Shown: in pieces, positions 3,001-42,207 of the stretch
Numbering within the stretch: the stretch's first letter is position 1
How the letters are laid out: the number at the start of each line of letters is the position of its first letter
IMG/VR virus record: IMGVR_UViG_3300008267_000092
Coordinates: 24,022-88,021 of that record
DNA from: a virus
Taxonomy: Duplodnaviria > Heunggongvirae > Uroviricota > Caudoviricetes > Crassvirales
Length of the DNA stretch: 64,000 nucleotides
Reading direction: 5' to 3' (one strand)
The notes under the pieces: model-generated
Seen by the model: the letters and a program-made list of their open reading frames with translations, nothing else
Database searches by the model: none
What the model was told of the DNA's origin: nothing
Translations under genes and position numbers: made by a program

Positions 3001-6000
3001 TGACACACCTGCAATTGATAAAGATTTAGTAAATGATTTAGAAAAAGAATATTATACTTATGTAATGTCTAATTTTACACCATTTAATTTAAGTTCTGTT
3101 GAAATAAGAAACTTATTAAGTGAATTACCTGTTGAATTTGAAAATTTTAAAAAGGCAAATAAAGGTAAATATGTGGTTATAGATGAGCTTCTAAATAAAT
3201 TTGATAAAAATTTTAAGTTAATAACTTTAAATAACAGAAAAAAATCAAGTTCTTTTGAAGAAAAGTTTACAGATTCTTGGAGAGATTTAATTACAGATCA
3301 TCCTGAATTTGCAGAAAATTTAATTAAATATTCATTTTTAACTTCAGGTTTTCAAATGAATACTAATCAGTTTTTTACATATATTCCCCATGAGTATTTA
3401 TTACAAAATAACATAAATCAATTTATTGTTAATTTTTCTAGACAGGATCAATTCGATTTCCTTGATAAATTTTACTTAAATAACACTGATAATTATAAAT
3501 ATGTACCTAAAGTATTTGATTCTGAAATTCAATCTGAAGATTTAACATCAGGTTTCACTTTAAAACAATCTGATAAAAGTGAAACAGGTAAAGCTCGTTA
3601 TTACGTATCGAGAGATGCTGGTGGAGGTATTTATAAACTAGAAGGGTATGATTCATTTAATAGAGCAATTTATACAAGAATTAAAGCATTAGGTCAAAAA
3701 CGTAAAGGTAGTACAATTGTTGAATATGGTGATCAATTTACAAAATCAAATCTTGAAACTAGTCCTGAATATATCACAAGATTAAAAAATTCAGTAGTTA
3801 CTGAACGTGATAAATATAATCCTAATTTTACTTTAGATAAAATTGCAGATAGAGAAGAAGATGATTCAACTAACGGATTAACTATAGAAGAACCTACTCA
3901 ACCATCTACTAGTATTTCTGAGTTTGATATAGCTGATAAATTATCACCTATAGAACAAAACTTTAAAGATGGTACAGGTGGTAGAAAAATGCAACCACAG
4001 TTTAAAGGTAAATCTACTATGGATCTTATTATATCAGGAGATAGAACTAGAACTACTAGAGCTAAAACTGATATACAAAGAATGACTAAAGATTATGGTT
4101 TATCTAAAATATCAGATCTTGTTGGTAAAGTTATAAGAATGACTGATAATACAGGAAGACAAGTATATACTATGATTACTAATGTAGTTCCATTTACACA
4201 AGAATATCAAGATGCTACGTGGCAAAATGAAGGTTGGGAAAAGTCTGTAACAGATAAACATGTAAATGATTATCCTTATGCAATTGAATTTAAAGTTGTA
4301 GATAAACCTACTCAACCATCTACTACTCAGGTAGAATCAGTTACGACTGAATTAACTCCAGGACAATATGTTAAATATAATGGTGAAACATACATTATTG
4401 TAAAACAGAATGCAAATGGAACATTTCAGATTTTAAATCCTACTTTAGAAGGTCCTTTATCTAAAATATCAGTTTCAAAAGAAAAACTTCAAGCAATCGG
4501 TAAAGAGGCAAAATTGGTTACCTATAAAGGTGTAGAATATTTAGTTACACCTAATAATACAATTATATCTACAGTTACCAATAAGGCGATGAATTGGACT
4601 GAAAATGATGGTAATAGACGTGCTATTTTAGAATTAGCTAATAACAATATCAAATCGTCCGATAAAATTGAAATTCCAACTGTTGAAAAAACTGTAGTTA
4701 GTAAACTTCAAGAAGTTACGATTTTTAAACCTGCAAATAAAGAGCAAGAGGTTGCAATTGAAGCTATTAAGGATTTTATTGAAAATGGTAATCCTAAAGA
4801 GATATTTACTTTAGAAGGTAAAGCTGGTACTGGTAAAACAACGTTAGTTCAAGAGGCATTAGCAGATTCTGTAGAAAAAGGTAAAAATATTCACATTGCG
4901 GCATTGTCACATAAAGCAAAATTAGTTTTAGCTCAAAAATTAGAACAAAGATTTCCTAAAAAAATAAGTAGTAGTAGTATTGCTGGTTTATTAGGAATGA
5001 AAATGAATGAGGAAACTGGTGAGTTTGAAACAGGATTTAGTGAGTTTGAAAGACCTGTAGAATCTGCAGATATTATTGTTATCGATGAAGCATCAATGGT
5101 AAATGAAGAAGCATTATCTTTAATTATGAGTGAAAAAAGATATGGTACTAAAGTTATATTTCTAGGTGATAGAGGTCAATTACCTCCTATTAGAAAATTA
5201 TCGAGTGATGAAATAAGTACAGTATTTGAATCTTCAAACAAAGCAAGTTTAGTTGAACGTGTAAGACAAGGTGAAGAATCTCCAATATTACCATTTGCTG
5301 ATTATTTTTGGGATAATTCAGAATCTGATAAACCTAAAGCGAATCCTATTCCTGAAGGTCAAATAAAAGATTCTTTAACAAGTAAAGGTAATTTAGTATT
5401 TGTAAATAATTTATTTGATGTGTTTGAGGATGTTGTAAGTAGTTTTAAACAGGGTATAGATTCTGGAAACTTCAACATAATTAAAATTGTAACATATAAA
5501 AATGCTACTAGGCAAAATTATAATAAGCAAATTAGAAAATCAATATTTGGAGAAGATGTACCTCAATTTGTGGTAAAAGATCAAATTATGTTTCAAAATA
5601 ATTACATGTCACAAGGTGTTGAATTTTCTAACAGTGATGAATTTTCAATTGAAGCCGTAATAACTTCTGAAAAAAATGGATATAAGGTATTCGATATAGG
5701 TGTTAAAGTAGATCCTACTAAAGATATAATTACTTATTTTTCAGTATTAGCTGAAGAAGATAAGTCTAAATTTAACGAAGAAGTGGCTAGATTATTTGAA
5801 GTGGCTAAAAAAATGGCACCTGGACAACTTAGGAAAATGGCATATAAAAGTGCATGGGCACTTAAAGCTACATTTGCGGAAATAGATTACTCTTATGCAA
5901 TAACATCACATAAATCACAAGGTTCAACATACGATAATGTTATTGTTGATTTAAAAGATATTTATTCTGTAGGTGCAACCACAAACGCATCTAAATCTCG

Positions 6001-23888: not shown

Positions 23889-24686
23889 TTAATTTGTTAA
23901 AATGTAACTATCTTTTTCAATTTGTCTAAGTAGTAGTTTTGCTAGTTTTCTATCATTGTTATCAATTGCTTCCACTACTTGAGCTGAATATTTATCAATA
24001 TAGTGGGTATGCTTACCGTCTAATACGTGTTCTACAGCTTTTATTGTTTGATCAAATACCCATTTAATCAATGTGTTGTCGTGTATCCAAAAATTAGATA
24101 ATTGACGACATTCTAATCCAAAAAGTTTAGGTCTAAAAGAACCAGCTTTACCATATAGTTCTCTTCTTCGTTCATCGTTATCCAATAATAATGAAGGTAA
24201 TGTTACAAAAATATCAAACATTTTTACAATATTGACAGTTTTTTCAAATTCAGGATCTGGATAACCTATATGAATATGTCCGCCCACACATCTCAAATTA
24301 GTATTTGTATCAGGTTTAGGGTTTATCATTTCCGTATATACGTTGTAATCAGGTTCACAACCAAATAATTGTGCTTGTTCAGATTGCAAATGTATAGGGT
24401 TTATTTCATCTGAAGCTTTTGTAGATAGTTCAAATCCGTGTGAATTTGCAATGACTTCAAGATATTCTTTAACATAATTAATGTTTTCAATATATTCATC
24501 TGCAGTACTACAAGGAGGAATGTTAAATTCAAATGCAATATTATCGGTTTGAATGAAATGACCCTTATCTGTAATTGGATAAGGATCATCTTTAGTTCCA
24601 GGAATTAATCCTACTGCAGATACAATTTCAGTATCATTTTCAATAAATACTTCAGGGTCACTACCTAATTTAATGTCGTATTTCAT
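23889..24686 (-). CDS. GCS2-like carboxylate-amine ligase (amidoligase)
   Basis: KLGSDPEVFIE N-terminal motif and VGGHIHIGYP (GxHxH) typical of glutamate-cysteine-ligase family 2 / phage amidoligases. Confidence 0.5.
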   Translation of the reverse strand: MKYDIKLGSDPEVFIENDTEIVSAVGLIPGTKDDPYPITDKGHFIQTDNIAFEFNIPPCSTADEYIENINYVKEYLEVIANSHGFELSTKASDEINPIHLQSEQAQLFGCEPDYNVYTEMINPKPDTNTNLRCVGGHIHIGYPDPEFEKTVNIVKMFDIFVTLPSLLLDNDERRRELYGKAGSFRPKLFGLECRQLSNFWIHDNTLIKWVFDQTIKAVEHVLDGKHTHYIDKYSAQVVEAIDNNDRKLAKLLLRQIEKDSYILTN

Positions 24687-30638: not shown

Positions 30639-30713
30639 TGGTCAGAATGGGACTCGAACCCATGTAACAGTCTTCCATGCAGTGTCTGTACCTTGCCACT
30701 CAGTCACCTGACC
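30639..30713 (-). tRNA. tRNA-like gene (75 nt), canonical acceptor stem and T-arm but non-canonical D/anticodon arms; possible tRNA-Pro(UGG)-derived pseudogene
   Basis: reverse complement GGTCAGG...ATGGGTTCGAGTCCCATTCTGACCA: 7-bp acceptor helix, perfect T-stem with TTCGAGT loop; anticodon stem does not pair cleanly in my manual fold. Confidence 0.4.
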
Positions 30714-34336: not shown

Positions 34337-35245
34337 TTATACGTTTCTTATATTGTTAATAAATTGTTTAACTTTACTTATTCCCTGACTATCATCAGGA
34401 AGTGGTAATTCTTTAAAATAATTGACAGCTCCGTCAAAATACAAAGGACATATTGCACCAGCACCGCCTTCACGACCACCTAATATTTCTAAAAATCTGA
34501 TATTATCTTTAAAGAAAGTTATATCATATCCATAATAGTCAGGTATTTCGTGTCTAAACGGACTAAATAATCCTAAAATTACGTTTGCATCTCTAGCTGT
34601 TAATTTATTATCGGCAAGACCGTCTAATGTAGGTTTAAGTTTGTTAAACTTTTTGTTTTCAATTGATTCTTGAGCCGCGCTCTGCTGTTGAATTACTACA
34701 GGTATATAATTAAATCTATTTCTTAATTTAATTAAATAATCTGACGATAATACAGACATACTTTCATGTAATGATAATTGTACACCGTTACGTTTTTCAC
34801 TTGATATCAATGAAATGTGATCAACTATAATCATAACATATTCATCAGGATCGTTTGGTTCATAATAATCATTTACTTCTGTAAGCTTACCTTCTATTTC
34901 AATCGTACGTTTGTGTAATTTACCATTCGCTAATGCATAATCTCTTACAAGATTAAACATTCCAAAACCATGACGTATGTCATCAATAAATTCAACAATT
35001 TCTTCTATTTTATCAAAATAAACTTCATATTTTGCAATAATGTCTAATATTCCTTGAGATAAAACGTTATCTGCTTTTGTACTTTTAAGGTCTTTTGGGC
35101 TGATTCGTAACCCTTCTTTAACATATAAAATGTTTGCAAATGCGGATAACATCTTTTCTTCTTTAGACATTTCTAATGTAAAATAGAAGATTTTTAATCT
35201 AATATCTAGTTTATTATCTATTATTTGTTGTATTGTATTATACAA
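34337..35245 (-). CDS. DnaB-like replicative helicase, C-terminal portion (motifs H1a-H4) lacking Walker A
   Basis: IFYFTLEMS (H1a), YVMIIVDHISLI (Walker B/H2), QQQSAAQES (H3), ARDANVILGLFSP (H4). Confidence 0.6.
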   Translation of the reverse strand: MYNTIQQIIDNKLDIRLKIFYFTLEMSKEEKMLSAFANILYVKEGLRISPKDLKSTKADNVLSQGILDIIAKYEVYFDKIEEIVEFIDDIRHGFGMFNLVRDYALANGKLHKRTIEIEGKLTEVNDYYEPNDPDEYVMIIVDHISLISSEKRNGVQLSLHESMSVLSSDYLIKLRNRFNYIPVVIQQQSAAQESIENKKFNKLKPTLDGLADNKLTARDANVILGLFSPFRHEIPDYYGYDITFFKDNIRFLEILGGREGGAGAICPLYFDGAVNYFKELPLPDDSQGISKVKQFINNIRNV

Positions 35246-35281
35246 AAATAACCAATCCGCAATTTGTGTTTTCTTTTGAAA

Positions 35282-35752
35282 TTATACAAACCATGTAGTT
35301 TCATCATGACCCATTAACGTTAAAATGTCTTTTAATGAACGTTCACCATTACCTTTTTCTTCAAATTTTGATTTACTATTATTAAAATCAACTAAGTATA
35401 TATAATATTCTGAAGTGTTATTACCAGACTCATACATTACCCATTTTTGTACATCTGGACAAAATAAAAATCTTAAATGCATTTTATTACATATGGATAA
35501 AGGTTTTGTTAACTTTTCAATTTGTGAAGCAATATGTTTTTTTGAAGCATGTGGGTAATAGGTTTTTACAACTGTTAACAATTCATCAAAACTTCTTCTT
35601 TTTTTACCACATTGTGAATTTGTACAATGTACATCGTGATAGGTTTCACAAAAAGTATAATTGTAACTGTGTTGACCCTCATCATAACATCTTTTTAAAA
35701 AAGAAACAATTTTTTCTCTGGGGTGTTTTTCAACGTTTACATATAATTTCAT
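35282..35752 (-). CDS. Cys/His-rich ORF inside the helicase-interrupting insertion (candidate intron-encoded endonuclease)
   Basis: 156 aa, CYDEGQHSYNYTFCETYHDVHCTNSQCGKKRR; located between helicase fragments. Confidence 0.35.
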   Translation of the reverse strand: MKLYVNVEKHPREKIVSFLKRCYDEGQHSYNYTFCETYHDVHCTNSQCGKKRRSFDELLTVVKTYYPHASKKHIASQIEKLTKPLSICNKMHLRFLFCPDVQKWVMYESGNNTSEYYIYLVDFNNSKSKFEEKGNGERSLKDILTLMGHDETTWFV

Positions 35753-36012
35753 ACTATAATTTAATAATTAATTTAACTTGTTTTATTTATTTAATTTTGG
35801 TAGTCGTGGTTATAAAATTAATATTTTATATTTATAGCCTGGACTATCTCTTCATCCACGTAGGATGCTGGACGCTAATAATGTATTACATAACACGCTT
35901 GTTAAACCATTTAGTCTCTACACCTTCCTTATAAGATCGTATAAGGCTTGGCACGGTATTGTCATCTTTCAATGAGTTTCACCGTTTTCATCCAGTTTTC
36001 ATCTAAATATTA
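35753..36012 (-). ncRNA. GC-richer structured segment, candidate group I intron core interrupting DnaB-like helicase gene
   Basis: CCTGGACTATCTCTTCATCCACGTAGGATGCTGGACGCT and CTTATAAGATCGTATAAGGCTTGGCACGG paired-looking segments in otherwise AT-rich DNA. Confidence 0.35.
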
Positions 36013-36219
36013 CTATTTAGCGGAGCAAAACATACCCACTTTACTATTTGCCGAGATAAGGTAATACTTACCTTGTTCTATACCTGGTGATTCTTTCTCA
36101 AATCTTGGAAAACCCCATGGTATGCAGTTAATTTTACCTGATAATAATCTATCTCTACGTTCAGTAATAGATTTAAATACTCTATTATAAAGGCTTTTTG
36201 GTTTATTTAATAAATCCAT
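36013..36219 (-). CDS. DnaB-like helicase N-terminal fragment up to (degenerate) Walker A region
   Basis: SGKINCIPWGFPRFEKESPGIEQGKYYLISANSKVGM aligns to DnaB G..GIPTGF..LD..TGG...G.LIIIAARPSMGKT; ORF stops immediately after. Confidence 0.5.
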   Translation of the reverse strand: MDLLNKPKSLYNRVFKSITERRDRLLSGKINCIPWGFPRFEKESPGIEQGKYYLISANSKVGMFCSAK

Positions 36220-36905: not shown

Positions 36906-37088
36906 TTATTCATCTAAACCTTCGTCTTCATTTAATGAAAATACAAAATCTTCAGCTAACTCTATAGTAACGTGACCTGCACCTTTACAAAGATTACATG
37001 TTGTTTTTTCTAATTTTTTATTATTTTCAGAAGGTTCAAGTGTTTCACCAACACCCATACATTTAGGACATACAATTAAGTTTGACAT
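36906..37088 (-). CDS. small DnaJ-type zinc-finger protein
   Basis: CPKCMGVGE...CNLCKGAGH (two CxxCxGxG). Confidence 0.4.
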   Translation of the reverse strand: MSNLIVCPKCMGVGETLEPSENNKKLEKTTCNLCKGAGHVTIELAEDFVFSLNEDEGLDE

Positions 37089-37291
37089 ACTTTTAAATTA
37101 TTAGTTTTTAATTTTTGATAATTGGTTTTTATTCTATTTATATCTAAATAGTCACTAATTGCATGAATACTTAATTCCATATCCAAATCTTGTTGAATAT
37201 ATTCTGCAATTAGTAATGGGTTACTTGTTTGATAATGATTCATTACCAAGTCAACAGCTAAGGCTTGTTCACTATATTTGTGATACGACAT
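37076..37291 (-). CDS. hypothetical protein
   Basis: 71 aa ORF. Confidence 0.3.
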   Translation of the reverse strand: MSYHKYSEQALAVDLVMNHYQTSNPLLIAEYIQQDLDMELSIHAISDYLDINRIKTNYQKLKTNNLKVCQT

Positions 37292-37293
37292 AA

Positions 37294-38199
37294 TTAAAAA
37301 AGTGACAGTTGATTAAAATTATTTACTTCGTCTATTATTTCTTGTGTTTTACGAATATAATATGAATAATTTATTTGATATTCGTCAAATGGTTTTTCTT
37401 TATACTCGTTAAAGATTTCAACACCTTCTCCCACATTAACATGTTGCATTGTACCCATACCATGCTTTTGTTTGAATAAATATGGTTTATTCTTGCTGAA
37501 ATAATACCTATTAAGTTGTTGCTGAATTTCGTTATTCCAATATACCACATAGTCTTTACTTATTTTATTAGATTTACAATAGTCATAGATGTGTAGGTTG
37601 TGTTTATCAGGATTTGATATATATTCATTAGGGGGTATCCCTCTAATATAATATTCATTCAATGCCTTAGATATAATTAATTCATTACATGAATCACCTA
37701 ATGGTATTTCTCTTTTATTGTCCTCATTAAAAGGTAATTTGAAAAAACCTTTACGTTTTATTTTACCACCACCTGTTTCACAAATATAATTATTGACATT
37801 TTTATAAATGATTTTATTATAATTCTCATGTTCAAATTCAAGATTAAATTTTCGAGCTGTAATATCTAAAATATCTTGATATTGTTTTAACATATGCATA
37901 GGTACTAACACTTCAATTCCGTCAGTATTTGCAGAGACAACTTGCCATTTGTTAATAATACAAATTTCAATACATTTAGTTAAAAATATTTGACCTATTA
38001 ATCGTAATCTCATTGCACCTTCAGGATAATATAACCAGCTATGGGAATTATCCAATAAACCTGATGTTGAATTAAGAATAAGTTTAAGAAATGAATCTTT
38101 AGCTTTATTTTTATTACGTTTAGCCTCAATACGTTCTGTTTTTACTTGTCTGTATCGATCTAACACTTCAGGTTGTCTAATACATCCATAATTTAACAT
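37294..38199 (-). CDS. family-B-like DNA polymerase, C-terminal fragment (motifs B and C)
   Basis: KLILNSTSGLL (KxxxNSxYG-like motif B), SANTDGIEVL (DTD motif C). Confidence 0.5.
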   Translation of the reverse strand: MLNYGCIRQPEVLDRYRQVKTERIEAKRNKNKAKDSFLKLILNSTSGLLDNSHSWLYYPEGAMRLRLIGQIFLTKCIEICIINKWQVVSANTDGIEVLVPMHMLKQYQDILDITARKFNLEFEHENYNKIIYKNVNNYICETGGGKIKRKGFFKLPFNEDNKREIPLGDSCNELIISKALNEYYIRGIPPNEYISNPDKHNLHIYDYCKSNKISKDYVVYWNNEIQQQLNRYYFSKNKPYLFKQKHGMGTMQHVNVGEGVEIFNEYKEKPFDEYQINYSYYIRKTQEIIDEVNNFNQLSLF

Positions 38200-38225
38200 T
38201 ATATTTGGATATAGTGCTTATATCC

Positions 38226-38966
38226 TTAATCCAGTATGTTTCCATCTGGCTGGACTATATCATTATTTAAAACTTTAACCCATTTAAAACCATACATTGA
38301 TGGTTTTTCACCACTACAACACGCGTAAATATTATGTACTTTATAGGTGGGATTATCAATTATAATATCCTTTACCTTTTTCCATTCTTTTATTAGTGTT
38401 GTACCGTTTTTAGAATATTGTAAAATTGTGTATTTTGTGTGAATATCCGATACCTTTTTCTTCATTTGTTCTTTTATTTCTGGATTTTCTTTCCAAAATT
38501 TAGATGAAGATTTACTTATTTTAATTCTTTCTTCAGGATTTTCATATCTTTTTTTATGTGAAATACTCATTTTAATACGTGTATTTTCATGACAAATCAT
38601 ATTTGTAGAAGAATCTCTTCTCAAATTGTATCCTAATTTAGAATCTGTTGTTTTGTAAAAATCTATCCAAAACAATTCTTTTTCTTTAATTATTGATTCA
38701 AAATCTTTAATATTTTTATCAATAATTTCAAGTACAAAATATTCAAATTTTTCTTTTCCGTATTTCCACCACGCATTTATAAAATATTGATTTTCTCTTT
38801 TGGGGTCTTTAGCGTTAAGTCCTCCAATATGATTATATATTCGTTGTCTAATATTTATAGATTTTCCAATATATTTTTTATCCGTTTCAATATTTCTAAT
38901 GCAGTAAATACCACAAAGACCCTCATGTAATTTATTTGTTTTCATATAAAATTTTATTTTATACAA
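38226..38966 (-). CDS. GIY-YIG homing endonuclease
   Basis: GIYCIRNIETDKKYIGKSINIRQRIYNH (GIY..YIG..R..H). Confidence 0.8.
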   Translation of the reverse strand: MYKIKFYMKTNKLHEGLCGIYCIRNIETDKKYIGKSINIRQRIYNHIGGLNAKDPKRENQYFINAWWKYGKEKFEYFVLEIIDKNIKDFESIIKEKELFWIDFYKTTDSKLGYNLRRDSSTNMICHENTRIKMSISHKKRYENPEERIKISKSSSKFWKENPEIKEQMKKKVSDIHTKYTILQYSKNGTTLIKEWKKVKDIIIDNPTYKVHNIYACCSGEKPSMYGFKWVKVLNNDIVQPDGNILD

Positions 38967-39222
38967 AGATACATTATTTTGAGGTAATATCCTAATTAAT
39001 TAGGGTAAATTTTACATAAATTTTATATTACTATAGCGTTTATGTGTTTTAAATACTTCCTGTTTAGTCTCTGAACCTTTATCCCATTAGGACACTTGGC
39101 TGCGGATTGACCAATCTTTATCTTTTTTACTATACTGAGGTAATTATTCTCACCACATAGTATGTTACCACCTATGTTTAGTAGATAAAGCTCTAAGGTT
39201 ATTCCCGTCAATTTAAGAAGTT
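38967..39222 (-). ncRNA. GC-richer structured segment, candidate group I intron core upstream of the GIY-YIG ORF
   Basis: GGACACTTGGCTGCGGATTGACC, GCGCCACTTTAACGC; the 70-aa ORF 39023..39235 here is probably not coding. Confidence 0.35.
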
Positions 39223-40194
39223 TTAATTGCGCCACTTTAACGCAATATCTGAGGTCATAATTTGTAAATCATTATCTGTATAATATTGTTCATTTTCATT
39301 AACAGAATGAAGACCTCCAATACCATATGTTAATCTAATATTTGTATTATTGTAATTAACTAAAAGTTCTTTACTGAATGTATCTTTACCATTTAATATT
39401 TCTAACCATAAATTTTGAAATATTGGTAATTTAAATTCAGGGTCAAAACCTTTTAAGATTTCATTTAAATACAATGTAGGTTTTTCATATCTTGTATTTC
39501 TGACTTCATTTATCTTTCTAGATGTTATCTTACAATAATCTGATAATAAAGCTTCTGATGCAATTTTTGGTGCATCCCAAGACCAACAATTTAAATTATA
39601 CTCTTTAATAATATTACCTCTTAAACGAATTTCTCCCTCCATTTCTAAAGTTAATAATTCTAATATACCTAAGTCGTGGGTATAATTATAATATCTTAAC
39701 TTAGGGAGATCTTCTAAAGATAATATAGAGTTTGGTTTAAATGGTAATTCTTGTACAACAGGATAACCTAATTGAATACCTAAAGATTTTAAACTTATCT
39801 TTTTAGAAATTCTTAACATTTTTGACCAATATGCAAACAAATCTATATCAATCCATTTAGATTTCATATATTTAATTTGTTTAACATCTTCGTCAAAAAT
39901 GTCATCTATTATTTTATCTGAGAAATATTTTAATTCTAGACATATATTTGAATATCCTAAGTACTTCAAATTTTCATAATTTTTAACTAAATACTTGACA
40001 ACCATGTTATCGTAATGTAATCCGTTAAAACTTATTAAAAATCCAGTATAACTTTTAAAAAATCCATATATTTTATCTATATCGTTTCTTTCTTCAGATA
40101 TTTCATAAAATGTAATTTCTTTAGTGACGAAATCTTTTATACCAACACAGAAATAATTTTTGTAACATTCTATATCGTATAGTTTTTTATTCAT
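39223..40194 (-). CDS. DNA polymerase N-terminal fragment with 3'-5' exonuclease motifs
   Basis: YDIECYKNYF (Exo I DxE), FNGLHYDNMVV (Exo II N..YD). Confidence 0.55.
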   Translation of the reverse strand: MNKKLYDIECYKNYFCVGIKDFVTKEITFYEISEERNDIDKIYGFFKSYTGFLISFNGLHYDNMVVKYLVKNYENLKYLGYSNICLELKYFSDKIIDDIFDEDVKQIKYMKSKWIDIDLFAYWSKMLRISKKISLKSLGIQLGYPVVQELPFKPNSILSLEDLPKLRYYNYTHDLGILELLTLEMEGEIRLRGNIIKEYNLNCWSWDAPKIASEALLSDYCKITSRKINEVRNTRYEKPTLYLNEILKGFDPEFKLPIFQNLWLEILNGKDTFSKELLVNYNNTNIRLTYGIGGLHSVNENEQYYTDNDLQIMTSDIALKWRN

Positions 40195-40319
40195 CGTAGT
40201 GGTGTAATACTTCTTAAATCATATTTTATTAATTTAGCTTTTGAGAATTTCTCAATTAAATAACTTCTCACTTCTTTTTGAGTTTTAAAAGGTTTAACAA
40301 ATTGTTTTTCGAACATATA
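40194..40319 (-). CDS. small ORF (41 aa) whose TGA overlaps the polymerase ATG
   Basis: MFEKQFVKPFKTQKEVRSYLIEKFSKAKLIKYDLRSITPLR; ATGA overlap. Confidence 0.25.
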
Positions 40320-40609
40320 TAATTATTTAAAGGTTACTTAATAAATAATAGAGCTTAACATACTACTTATCCTACTCTATTTGGTAACACTGAGCTGTTA
40401 CAGGGAAATCCGTGAGTTGTAAACCTCCGATTTCATGATAGTATATTTGTTTACACTCAACTATCCCATACTTTTAATAAAATAATAGTGTAGGTTGTTA
40501 ATCTACATTTCCGTTAGGGTTTTACACTTAAACTAACTATTATTTCTCACCATTTACACGGATGGTTGTATTTTTGATTTAATTTGTATTTCCATATATA
40601 ACTATATGA

Positions 40610-41143
40610 TTATCTTATAATATTTTTTATTATTTCTTCAATTTCAGATCGTTGTTCAGTTGTAAATAATGGTTGTTTAATTTTAGACCATTGATTTAAA
40701 CTTTGATTTAAAAATTCACCATACCAACCACTCAAGTTTCCTTGAATAATTTCAAAATCTAAAGAATTATTTTTAACTCTAAAAGATTTTATTTTACAAT
40801 CTTTTTTACCCCAACCTTCATTTAAAGCTACAATATCACCAACTGTAAATATTTCACCGTCACTTAAACGTTTAATTGAATGTATTCTAGCATTATCACA
40901 TTTTAACATAGCTTCAATATATCCACAACCATAATTAGAAACATCTGTTATTGTAGGCTTTATTGTACATAATCTAGCTAAAGATAATATTTCATACTCT
41001 TTTTCAATAACTTCTTCCCAAAATTCAGGATAATCACAACATTTTAAAAAGATAACACCATTACTAGTATAATTTTCAGTGGTAATGATATATCCTAATT
41101 TAGGGCTTCCTGGATAGGTTTTAATTAAAATGTATTTTTTCAT
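40610..41143 (-). CDS. hypothetical protein
   Basis: 177 aa ORF. Confidence 0.4.
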   Translation of the reverse strand: MKKYILIKTYPGSPKLGYIITTENYTSNGVIFLKCCDYPEFWEEVIEKEYEILSLARLCTIKPTITDVSNYGCGYIEAMLKCDNARIHSIKRLSDGEIFTVGDIVALNEGWGKKDCKIKSFRVKNNSLDFEIIQGNLSGWYGEFLNQSLNQWSKIKQPLFTTEQRSEIEEIIKNIIR

Positions 41144-41195
41144 TGTTATTTGTTTTAAATGTTATTATTTAATTCGTGGAGACGATATTTTAATA

Positions 41196-41696
41196 TTATT
41201 TATTAATGTAAGTTCTACCACAAGAAATATCTCGAATTGTAGTGTATGGTAAATTATATTGAATTGCTAAATTTCTTAAATTTAACTTTTCATTATTTTT
41301 TCTACGAGTTTTAATAATATTGTAAATAGTTAAAGCTATTTCATTATTTATTAACATGTTTGGTGGTGTATTTCCTTTTTCAAATCTTTTACCTATTGGT
41401 ACAATCATTCTGTTTTTATTATAACAATCTTTCATATTTTCACTTTGTGTACCTAAAAATAAATGATTAGGATTGACACATTTACGGTTATCACATTTAT
41501 GACAAACATTTAATGTTTTATCTGTAATTATACCATACGTTAACTCATAAGATAATCTATGAGAACTATGTGTTTTTTCTTTTGTTTTAAACGCACCGTA
41601 TCCATTTAATCTGCATGATGCAGTCCATTCCCAACAATCATCTTCTGATTTAATATTTACTTTATCCCAGAATTTTTTAATTTGTTGTTCATTCAT
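41196..41696 (-). CDS. HNH homing endonuclease
   Basis: [23 protein letters not shown] (His-Me finger). Confidence 0.8.
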
Positions 41697-41730: not shown

Positions 41731-41788
41731 CGTCTCCAAACATCATAGGATATACCCTGAGTTTGGAGACGGTGGGATTCGAACCCAC
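41731..41788 (-). pseudogene. tRNA 3'-half remnant (T-arm + 3' acceptor strand) fused to an 11-bp hairpin in the 5' leader of the HNH gene
   Basis: reverse complement GTGGGTTCGAATCCCAC-CGTCTCCA...; CGTCTCCAAAC pairs with downstream GTTTGGAGACG; no D/anticodon arm upstream. Confidence 0.5.
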
Positions 41789-42207
41789 GTCGATCAATGC
41801 GTTTGTTATATAATTTTATACAGCTTTTTGTAGTATTTAATCTTTAATGTCCCTTAAACACTACTAAATGTGGACAGCTATGGCAATGTTATACTCTAGC
41901 CAGTGTTGAGTTTGATTTGGGATTAGCGCACACGCGAATTCTAATTTACCAAATCATTTTAAACTATGCTGCCATTAATACTTCTTCTTTAGAAGAGTTA
42001 ATCAATGAAAAAACTTTAGCCATATTGGCTTTTGCTTGATTTTTGCCGTTTAAAATATTCACCTTAGTTTACAGTTATCTCTCTGGCTGAATTATATAAT
42101 TACTGACACAACCTCAAAGCCAGTCGTCCCCTTATTAATTGTTTAAAGTACAATCATAAACTTATTATTAGAAGGTGACACTTAATGTAATCACCTTCTA
42201 TAATTTA

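Follow-up and report, generated by a model that had tools for sequence, protein, structure and literature searches.

On the minus strand of a 64,000-nucleotide (nt) stretch of DNA from an uncultured crAss-like phage (Crassvirales; IMG/VR record IMGVR_UViG_3300008267_000092, positions 24,022 to 88,021), referred to here as the window, positions 37294 to 40194 very probably represent a single gene, which encodes a family B DNA polymerase and into which a group I intron of 1023 nt, bearing the gene for a GIY-YIG endonuclease, is inserted. The RNA structure, the exact boundaries of the insertion, the integrity of the spliced open reading frame (ORF), the presence or absence of the intron among near-identical genomes, and the occurrence of ORF-less derivatives of the intron were all established directly. 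The locus is made up of the following parts.

39240 to 40194, minus strand: polymerase exon 1, with the exonuclease domain and the initial half of motif A (in silico splicing; the blastn alignment to the intron-less contig L001 ends at 39240)
38217 to 39239, minus strand: group I intron of 1023 nt that begins with U39239 and ends with the terminal G38217 (Rfam, absence from L001, covariation)
38226 to 38966, minus strand: GIY-YIG homing endonuclease ORF, located in the P8 loop of the intron (Pfam, PHROG, homologs)
37294 to 38216, minus strand: polymerase exon 2, with motifs B and C (in silico splicing, alignment to L001, covariation)

Splice sites and spliced product

All genes between 35 and 43 kb of the window lie on the minus strand, and the three minus-strand ORFs listed for this locus in an earlier, sequence-only reading (39223 to 40194, 38226 to 38966, and 37294 to 38199) were recovered at the same coordinates. 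As that reading had stated, the first of these contains the Exo I (DIE) and Exo II (NGLHYD) motifs, to which Exo III (YNYTHD) can be added, and the last contains motifs B (KLILNSTSG) and C (SANTDG). Motif A had been reported absent from both fragments, and a further, missing piece of the gene had been considered. Instead, motif A is divided by the intron and would be rebuilt on splicing. No further piece is needed, the two exons together giving a complete product of 625 amino acids.

The 5' splice site was placed after U39240, which forms a U·G pair with G39232 in a P1 helix of 7 bp; as read from the sequence, exon bases AUUGCGU (39246 to 39240) pair there with the guide GCGCAAU (39232 to 39226). 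An adjacent guide, AGUG (39236 to 39233), is complementary to CACU (38216 to 38213), the first bases of exon 2, giving a P10 of 4 bp, and this CACU directly follows G38217, the terminal base of the intron. In silico removal of the 1023 nt leaves an ORF of 1878 nt without stops, in which the predicted ligated sequence consists of ...GAUAUUGCGU joined to CACUAUAUCC. The predicted junction, GAT ATT GCG T/CA CTA TAT CCA (D-I-A-S-L-Y-P; here and below, a slash within an exon sequence or codon marks the point of insertion), splits the codon for Ser318 (U/CA). Motif A after splicing reads D-I-A-S-L-Y-P-N, with D-I-A ending exon 1 and L-Y-P-N-I encoded in the 17 nt that precede the ATG of the downstream ORF. 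The suggestion that the splice boundaries might lie inside the annotated ORFs therefore held for the 5' site, located 17 nt (stop codon counted) inside the end of ORF 39223 to 40194, but not for the 3' site, which lies 17 nt upstream of the ATG of ORF 37294 to 38199. Without splicing, the exon 1 frame meets a UAA stop at 39225 to 39223 (intron bases 15 to 17, 14 nt into the intron), where ribosomes arriving from exon 1 would stop after crossing the guide sequence. While gene callers report two polymerase fragments seemingly without motif A, the exact splice sites restore a normal 625-amino-acid polymerase, and the same annotation correction is applicable to more than 40 related viral contigs.

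Intron-less alleles

The best homolog of the spliced protein, P0001 (625 amino acids), is 99% identical to it in a gap-free alignment, with TSDIASLYPNIM spanning the junction. The contig that encodes it, L001, could be aligned to the window in three pieces, at 94 to 98% nucleotide identity (blastn). As had been proposed, this alignment to an uninterrupted homolog served to map the insertion: it breaks exactly at the predicted splice sites (window 39240/38216 corresponds to L001 2813/2814), and the stretch missing from L001 is exactly the predicted intron. Because the flanking bases differ, the indel cannot be slid, and the insertion therefore comprises exactly 39239 to 38217. The intron is also absent from L002, a 99% identical relative. 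The intron-less target sequence is GATATTGCGTCACTATATCC in the L001 type and GACATCAGTAGTTTATATCC in the L002 type; exact 20-nt searches of IMG/VR for these two alleles gave no match, and neither did a megablast search of 37000 to 40400 against the phage collection.

More widely, 941 homologs of the spliced protein were found. Of the 120 best listed, more than 70 are single chains, 612 to 679 amino acids long, that cover 98 to 100% of it, rather than the naturally separate exonuclease and polymerase genes that the sequence-only reading had named as the outcome that would speak against an intron. Among 50 polymerase relatives in IMG/VR, motif A is uninterrupted in 46 and occupied by the window's type of intron in 4. 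The window, L001, and L002, although 97 to 99% identical, differ from one another in three ways: the motif A intron is found only in the window, an extra helicase intron (see below) only in L001, and L002 has a recoded motif A site and a polymerase ORF broken in motif C, probably by a different intron. In uncultured crAss-like phages, the three offer a natural series in which intron homing and the escape of target sites can be followed.

Structure of the ribozyme and covariation

The group I scan that had been called for, performed on 37900 to 39600 with Rfam, returned the Intron_gpI model (RF00028) at 39261 to 39049 on the minus strand, with 41.4 bits (curated cut-off, 50) and an E value of 1e-8, and a second fragment at 38265 to 38234 covers the 3' end of the model. 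The score of the window falls below the cut-off because the match is interrupted by the roughly 0.8-kb ORF of the P8 loop; L044, which belongs to the same intron family and occupies the same site but has no ORF, reaches 79.7 bits over the full model. The GC-richer segment that had been noticed at 38967 to 39222 is real, if modest (a GC fraction of 0.31 to 0.32 at 39000 to 39300, with flanks at about 0.22 to 0.27). The complementary stretches reported within it are ribozyme helices P1 to P8, but the ribozyme extends beyond this segment, with its 3' strands at 38273 to 38217. The elements of the ribozyme, all on the minus strand, are as follows.

39046 to 39246, minus strand: 5' part of the ribozyme (helix coordinates and pair counts)
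39246 to 39240 with 39232 to 39226, minus strand: P1 (covariation)
39236 to 39233, minus strand: P10 guide bases (covariation)
39220 to 39215 with 39061 to 39056, minus strand: P3, 5' and 3' strands
39211 to 39204 with 39106 to 39100, minus strand: P4, 5' and 3' strands
39199 to 39197 with 39112 to 39110, minus strand: P5, 5' and 3' strands
39190 to 39183 with 39123 to 39116, minus strand: P5a, 5' and 3' strands
39176 to 39156, minus strand: P5b
39152 to 39136, minus strand: P5c
39099 to 39076, minus strand: P6/P6a
39069 to 39065 with 38257 to 38253, minus strand: P7, 5' and 3' strands
39053 to 39046 with 38273 to 38266, minus strand: P8, 5' and 3' strands
38217 to 38273, minus strand: 3' part of the ribozyme (helix coordinates, covariation, Rfam fragment)
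38249 to 38231, minus strand: P9 hairpin with a GAAA loop
38225 to 38219, minus strand: 3' tail GGAUAUA, followed by the terminal G38217

The P5 extension is a three-way arrangement (P5a, P5b, and P5c) with GNRA loops, and P9 is short. For the analysis of covariation, 27 different family members, each represented by its joined 5' and 3' core segments, were placed in one alignment (A1), and a hand-drawn structure comprising P1, P10, P3, P4, P5, P5a to P5c, P6, P6a, P7, P8, and P9 was mapped from the row of the window onto its columns. Over the 74 pairs in 14 helices, 94.1% of cells were paired, compared to 76.9% in shuffled alignments and 36 to 42% when the partners were slid, with the window's own pairs being true by construction and only the other 26 sequences testing the structure. 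Compensatory changes, i.e., changes on both sides of a pair, were found in 50 of the 74 pairs (36.5 in shuffles), and the covariation score was 0.452 (0.152 in shuffles); none of 500 shuffles reached the observed values. The U·G pair at the splice site is present in all 27 sequences. Both-side changes occur in five of the seven pairs of P1 (variants include AUUGCGU/GCGCAAU, GUUUCGU/GCGAAAC, and GUUGGGU/GCCCAAC) and in three of the four pairs of P10, following synonymous changes in the exons. P6 and P7 are invariant across the alignment and hence uninformative on covariation; for the rest of the group I core from P3 to P9, which includes the P3/P7 pseudoknot, the alignment gives strong support. 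Together, the Rfam match, the set of P1, P10, U·G pair, and terminal G, the intron-less allele, and the 27-sequence covariation bear out the proposal of a group I intron carrying a homing endonuclease gene.

The host polymerase

The spliced protein matches PHROG 1252, annotated as "DNA polymerase," in one stretch (residues 3 to 618; E value, 8e-103), and it contains, in order, the motifs DIE, NGLHYD, YNYTHD, DIASLYPN, KLILNSTSG, and SANTDG, with NTD in motif C where the canonical sequence is DTD; the family B consensus is DxxSLYPS for motif A and KxxxNSxYG for motif B. No Pfam family was matched at an E value of ≤0.01, and a search of solved structures with the single sequence returned only noise. 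A profile built from 30 homologs aligned motifs B and C with the KOD, Tgo, and 9°N polymerases (E value, 0.0027), with motif A below the threshold. In an AlphaFold2 (AF2) model (predicted local distance difference test [pLDDT], 89.1; predicted template modeling [TM] score, 0.82), the polymerase has the predicted fold of family B: a Foldseek search against PDB returned archaeal PolB, Escherichia coli Pol II, and polymerase alpha, with E values of 4e-13 to 1e-10 and TM scores of about 0.5. The protein is a distant member of family B, recognized only by PHROG 1252 and by this modeled fold. Among annotated phage polymerases, the nearest to it come from crAss-like phages (27 to 30% amino acid identity).

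The homing endonuclease gene

The middle ORF had been called a GIY-YIG gene from its letters, an assignment that Pfam upheld (PF01541; 38.1 bits, with a cut-off of 22.6; E value, 2e-9; residues 18 to 106), as did the PHROG homing-endonuclease families (E value, 2e-19). By eye, the catalytic residues can be followed as G-I-Y, Y-I-G 11 residues on, and downstream R, E, and N. Mechanically, the ORF starts with a TTG at 38966, and an ATG at 38945 would give a protein of 239 amino acids. Its stop codon (38228 to 38226) lies 8 nt before the terminal G38217, and its last 16 sense codons plus the stop (38276 to 38226) double as the P8', P7', and P9 strands of the ribozyme. An exact look-up of the protein returned no record. 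Its 17 homologs, which are 39 to 55% identical and encoded on viral contigs, are all found inside polymerase genes at motif A; the polymerases that host them are only 25 to 33% identical to that of the window, with exons that end and restart at query residues 317/318. The predicted endonuclease family would target a stretch of polymerase-coding sequence that is very conserved, and it could be useful to engineers of GIY-YIG enzymes.

An intron family at the same site

A 21-nt element spanning P7 and P3', AAGGTTCAGAGACTAAACAGG, is present in 47 viral contigs, 44 of which share the exon context GAY NTN NNN U/intron/C(A/G/U) NNN UAY CC, i.e., D-x-x-S-x-Y-P; the other three carry the core in other genes. 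The splitting of the serine codon between U and C was confirmed in all 37 contigs with a readable 3' junction (in the remainder, the sequence ends earlier in four and the junction was not placed by our search patterns in three). Most family members have an ORF of 0.7 to 0.9 kb between the 5' and 3' strands of P8, and ORF-less derivatives measure 272 nt (L044/L059) and 291 nt (L026). The absence of the intron from L001 and L002, these ORF-less derivatives, and the homologous endonucleases in distant polymerases are signs of mobility.

A second ribozyme lineage, found in L003-L017, is inserted 5 nt upstream (GAY GU/N GCA UCU, with P1 and P10 read by eye) and has extra sequence after P7 that resembles P7.1/P7.2. 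The introns of this lineage carry a homologous GIY-YIG endonuclease, up to 52% identical. GIY-YIG endonucleases that are 39 to 52% identical are found on two ribozyme lineages, the lineage of the window inserting after GCG U, and the grouping of the endonucleases in a rough tree, which lacks support values, does not follow ribozyme lineage.

In L002, the insertion site itself has been recoded: at 2381 to 2400, corresponding to window 39252 to 39240 plus 38216 to 38211, TCA GAT ATT GCG TCA CTA is replaced by TCG GAC ATC AGT AGT TTA. Eight substitutions fall within the 14 nt that cover the site, and the adjoining 280 nt (140 nt on each side) are unchanged. At the protein level, the only consequence is a change from A to S, and the split serine codon goes from UCA to AGU, losing the splice-site U. 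The recoded site resembles a scar left by repair, or an allele that resists cleavage; AGT at the split serine codon is also found in 13 more distant intron-less relatives. We tentatively raise the possibility, which we regard as rather less than even, that the motif A codons are the site of an ongoing contest between endonuclease and target.

At the 3' splice site (window 38207 to 38225, minus strand), the 3' tail GGAUAUA can pair with UAUAUCC of exon 2, placing the splice site in a 5-nt loop. Similar pairings, within exon 2 bases 4 to 14, can be drawn in about half of the family (L027, L029, L033, L035, L041, L026, L028, and L037), with some compensatory changes, as between GGAUAUA/UAUAUCC (window) and GGGUAUA/UAUACCC (L027) and between GGCAGGA/UCCUGCC (L029) and GGCUGGA/UCCAGCC (L033). 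Shuffles of the individual sequences did not give significance for this hairpin (89/500 for the window). It could be an unrecognized element for the choice of the 3' splice site.

Other insertions were observed in polymerase genes of this group. L002 (2684 to 2818) and L067 (4207 to 4520) have no motif A intron, and in both the ORF of the polymerase ends within motif C (SANTDGIE), at residue 421; the insertion in L067 is a group I intron (94.1 bits). Another contig has a 421-amino-acid N-terminal part of the polymerase followed by a GIY-YIG ORF of 261 amino acids. Further polymerase relatives (L110, L116, and L117) have insertions at residues 59/60, in Exo II, at 367/369, in motif B, at about 416, in motif C, and at 548/551. 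With the exception of the one at residues 59/60, these four insertions show, by eye, P, Q, R, and S elements like those of group I introns; an Rfam scan of 22 kb of L110, L116, and L117 returned nothing, with large-region scans missing introns in such AT-rich DNA.

Proposed mechanism and alternative explanations

Reasoning from known group I introns, we expect the intron to be self-splicing in vivo. One pre-mRNA would be transcribed from the whole gene, in which the guide GCGCAAU and the last exon bases AUUGCGU would form P1, with U39240 in the U·G wobble. Attack after U39240 would then come from a free guanosine bound in P7. With the guide AGUG holding CACU of exon 2 as P10, the freed 3' OH of exon 1 would attack after G38217, resulting in the ligated mRNA GAU AUU GCG U/CA CUA UAU CCA, and catalytic motif A would come into existence only after splicing. 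Activity of the endonuclease and homing of the intron are likewise expected from I-TevI-type enzymes: in co-infecting phages, polymerase alleles without the intron would be cut by the enzyme near the insertion site, and repair from the intron-bearing copy would spread the intron and the endonuclease gene together.

The same locus might be read as a naturally split polymerase, its two products assembling with each other and a free-standing endonuclease gene lying between their genes. Split gene 43 in some T4-like phages provides a precedent, gene callers do see two ORFs that each have their own start and stop, and free-standing endonuclease genes do occur in this genome (HNH ORF 41196 to 41696, missing from L002). 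However, the break lies inside the codon for Ser318 and inside catalytic motif A, and the downstream ATG comes only after S-L-Y-P-N-I, so that motif A would be in neither product. Moreover, a complete ribozyme core with strong covariation encloses the endonuclease gene, the 99% identical protein P0001 is uninterrupted, and single full-length chains make up the majority of the best listed homologs, as described above. A split polymerase is thereby excluded as far as sequence can exclude it, and we consider it extremely improbable. An intein was also considered and rejected, given that the exon 1 frame stops at 39225 to 39223 and that the endonuclease ORF is in a different frame.

Several observations weigh against an interrupted gene with a functional group I intron, some of which would suit a decayed intron that no longer splices efficiently, leaving the polymerase as a pseudogene or dependent on a co-infecting helper or on a protein of host or phage origin. 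The Rfam score of the window is under the curated cut-off, the intron has no P2 and no P7.1/P7.2, and the endonuclease ORF overlaps core strands, such that its translation through P8', P7', and P9 would compete with folding. In addition, the covariation structure was drawn from the window itself, a comparison of the endonuclease with solved structures gave no match, and whole-window Rfam scans, in both gathering and E-value modes, missed the motif A intron as well as the helicase intron described below; an empty scan of a large region is no evidence of absence in this AT-rich DNA, the helicase intron scoring 67 bits when a small region was scanned. Against decay, all 14 helices are intact in the window, and at the conserved core sequences P, Q, R, and S it does not differ from family members in more than 40 contigs. 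The exons are free of frameshifts and stops, their product is 99% identical to the uninterrupted allele, and the gene is probably indispensable to the phage. We therefore regard decay as very unlikely and retain the reading of one polymerase gene with an intact, endonuclease-bearing group I intron.

Comparison with known systems

Textbook examples exist of mobile group I introns that encode GIY-YIG enzymes, among them the group IA2 intron in td of phage T4 with its endonuclease, I-TevI. As in td, we find a group I intron that interrupts a protein-coding gene of a phage (self-splicing in T4, predicted to be so here), with similar core elements (AAUUG(A)CGGGAA, AAUCCGCAGCC, GUUCAGAGACUA, and GAUAUAGUCC) and a GIY-YIG enzyme encoded in a peripheral loop, and mobility here would likewise be by homing. 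The host gene in T4 encodes thymidylate synthase rather than a polymerase, and the ORF lies in the P6 loop of td, whereas the present ORF occupies the P8 loop and extends into P8', P7', and P9. In further contrast to td, the present intron is without P2 and P7.1/P7.2 and has a large extension on P5 (P5a, P5b, and P5c).

In archaeal family B polymerases, inteins are found in motifs A and C; they are likewise selfish elements with homing endonucleases, situated in the same catalytic motifs of the same enzyme family; as mentioned above, relatives of the phage described here carry a group I intron in motif C as well. Inteins are removed in frame at the protein level, whereas the element in the window is out of frame, contains stops, and would be removed at the RNA level.

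Group I introns in polymerase genes also occur in Bacillus phages SPO1 and SP82 and in T7-like phages. These resemble the present case in combining an intron in a polymerase gene with an endonuclease, but the endonucleases of the other phage polymerase introns are HNH enzymes and the host polymerases belong to family A, instead of the GIY-YIG endonuclease and family B polymerase found here. In cyanophage Pf-WMP3, the intron in the polymerase gene belongs to group IA2, and its endonuclease, I-PfoP3I, is a nicking HNH enzyme, according to the excerpt of the source that we drew on (PMC3428280). In the part of Yutin et al. 2021 that we drew on (PMC7886860), PolB is one of the core genes given as interrupted by group I introns in the Delta and Zeta groups of crAss-like phages; the introns there were recognized via protein domains, with no splice sites, RNA structures, or maps of the insertion sites. 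The intron in the window and those PolB introns probably represent the same phenomenon, although the phage studied here is only distantly related to the Delta and Zeta genomes. Going by that part of the source, group I introns in crAss-like PolB were already known, and what is added here is a base-exact map, a covarying RNA structure, and a survey of the intron family. Nothing in these results alters the understanding of how group I introns work.

A helicase intron and other neighboring features

A second group I intron (window 35276 to 36044, minus strand) interrupts the Walker A codons of a DnaB-like helicase gene. A small-region Rfam scan placed Intron_gpI at 36044 to 35826 (67.1 bits; E value, 2.6e-16). 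Helicase exon 1 (ORF 36013 to 36219) ends with ...ISANSKVG at U36034, and exon 2, its 3' splice site read by eye, appears to start with AAA ACA CAA near 35275 (KTQIADWLF...) and to continue in ORF 34337 to 35245.

Between the ribozyme core and the 3' splice site, this intron holds an ORF of 156 amino acids (35282 to 35752, minus strand) without a match in Pfam or PHROG and with only four homologs among 5.8 billion proteins. The homolog in L068 is again located just before the same 3' splice site, after a 197-amino-acid ORF and an intron core. A structure prediction for the 156-amino-acid ORF was unusable (pLDDT, 49.9). The ORF may represent an undescribed intron-borne protein family.

In L001, the corresponding region (4984 to 5492, i.e., window about 36043 to 35826) gives two tandem Intron_gpI matches, of 90 and 67 bits. 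The extra intron, 291 nt long and ORF-less, follows AGU (window U36043), and the shared intron follows GGU (U36034), leaving a 9-nt micro-exon, AAAGUGGGU, between the two.

Elsewhere in the window, Rfam in E-value mode reported a tRNA at 30639 to 30713 (minus strand; 40.5 bits), which was absent from the gathering-mode scan and from the ARAGORN output. A transfer-messenger RNA (tmRNA) gene at 41763 to 42131 (minus strand; Rfam, 55.3 bits), for which GKNQAKANMAKVFSLINSSKEEVLMAA is the tag peptide according to ARAGORN, recurs in L001 and L002. Beside it, 40582 to 41693 (minus strand) contains the HNH ORF (41196 to 41696; Pfam HNH_3) and an ORF of 177 amino acids (40610 to 41143). Both are present in L001, and 48 nt stand in their place in L002, which looks like a polymorphism of a free-standing endonuclease cassette.

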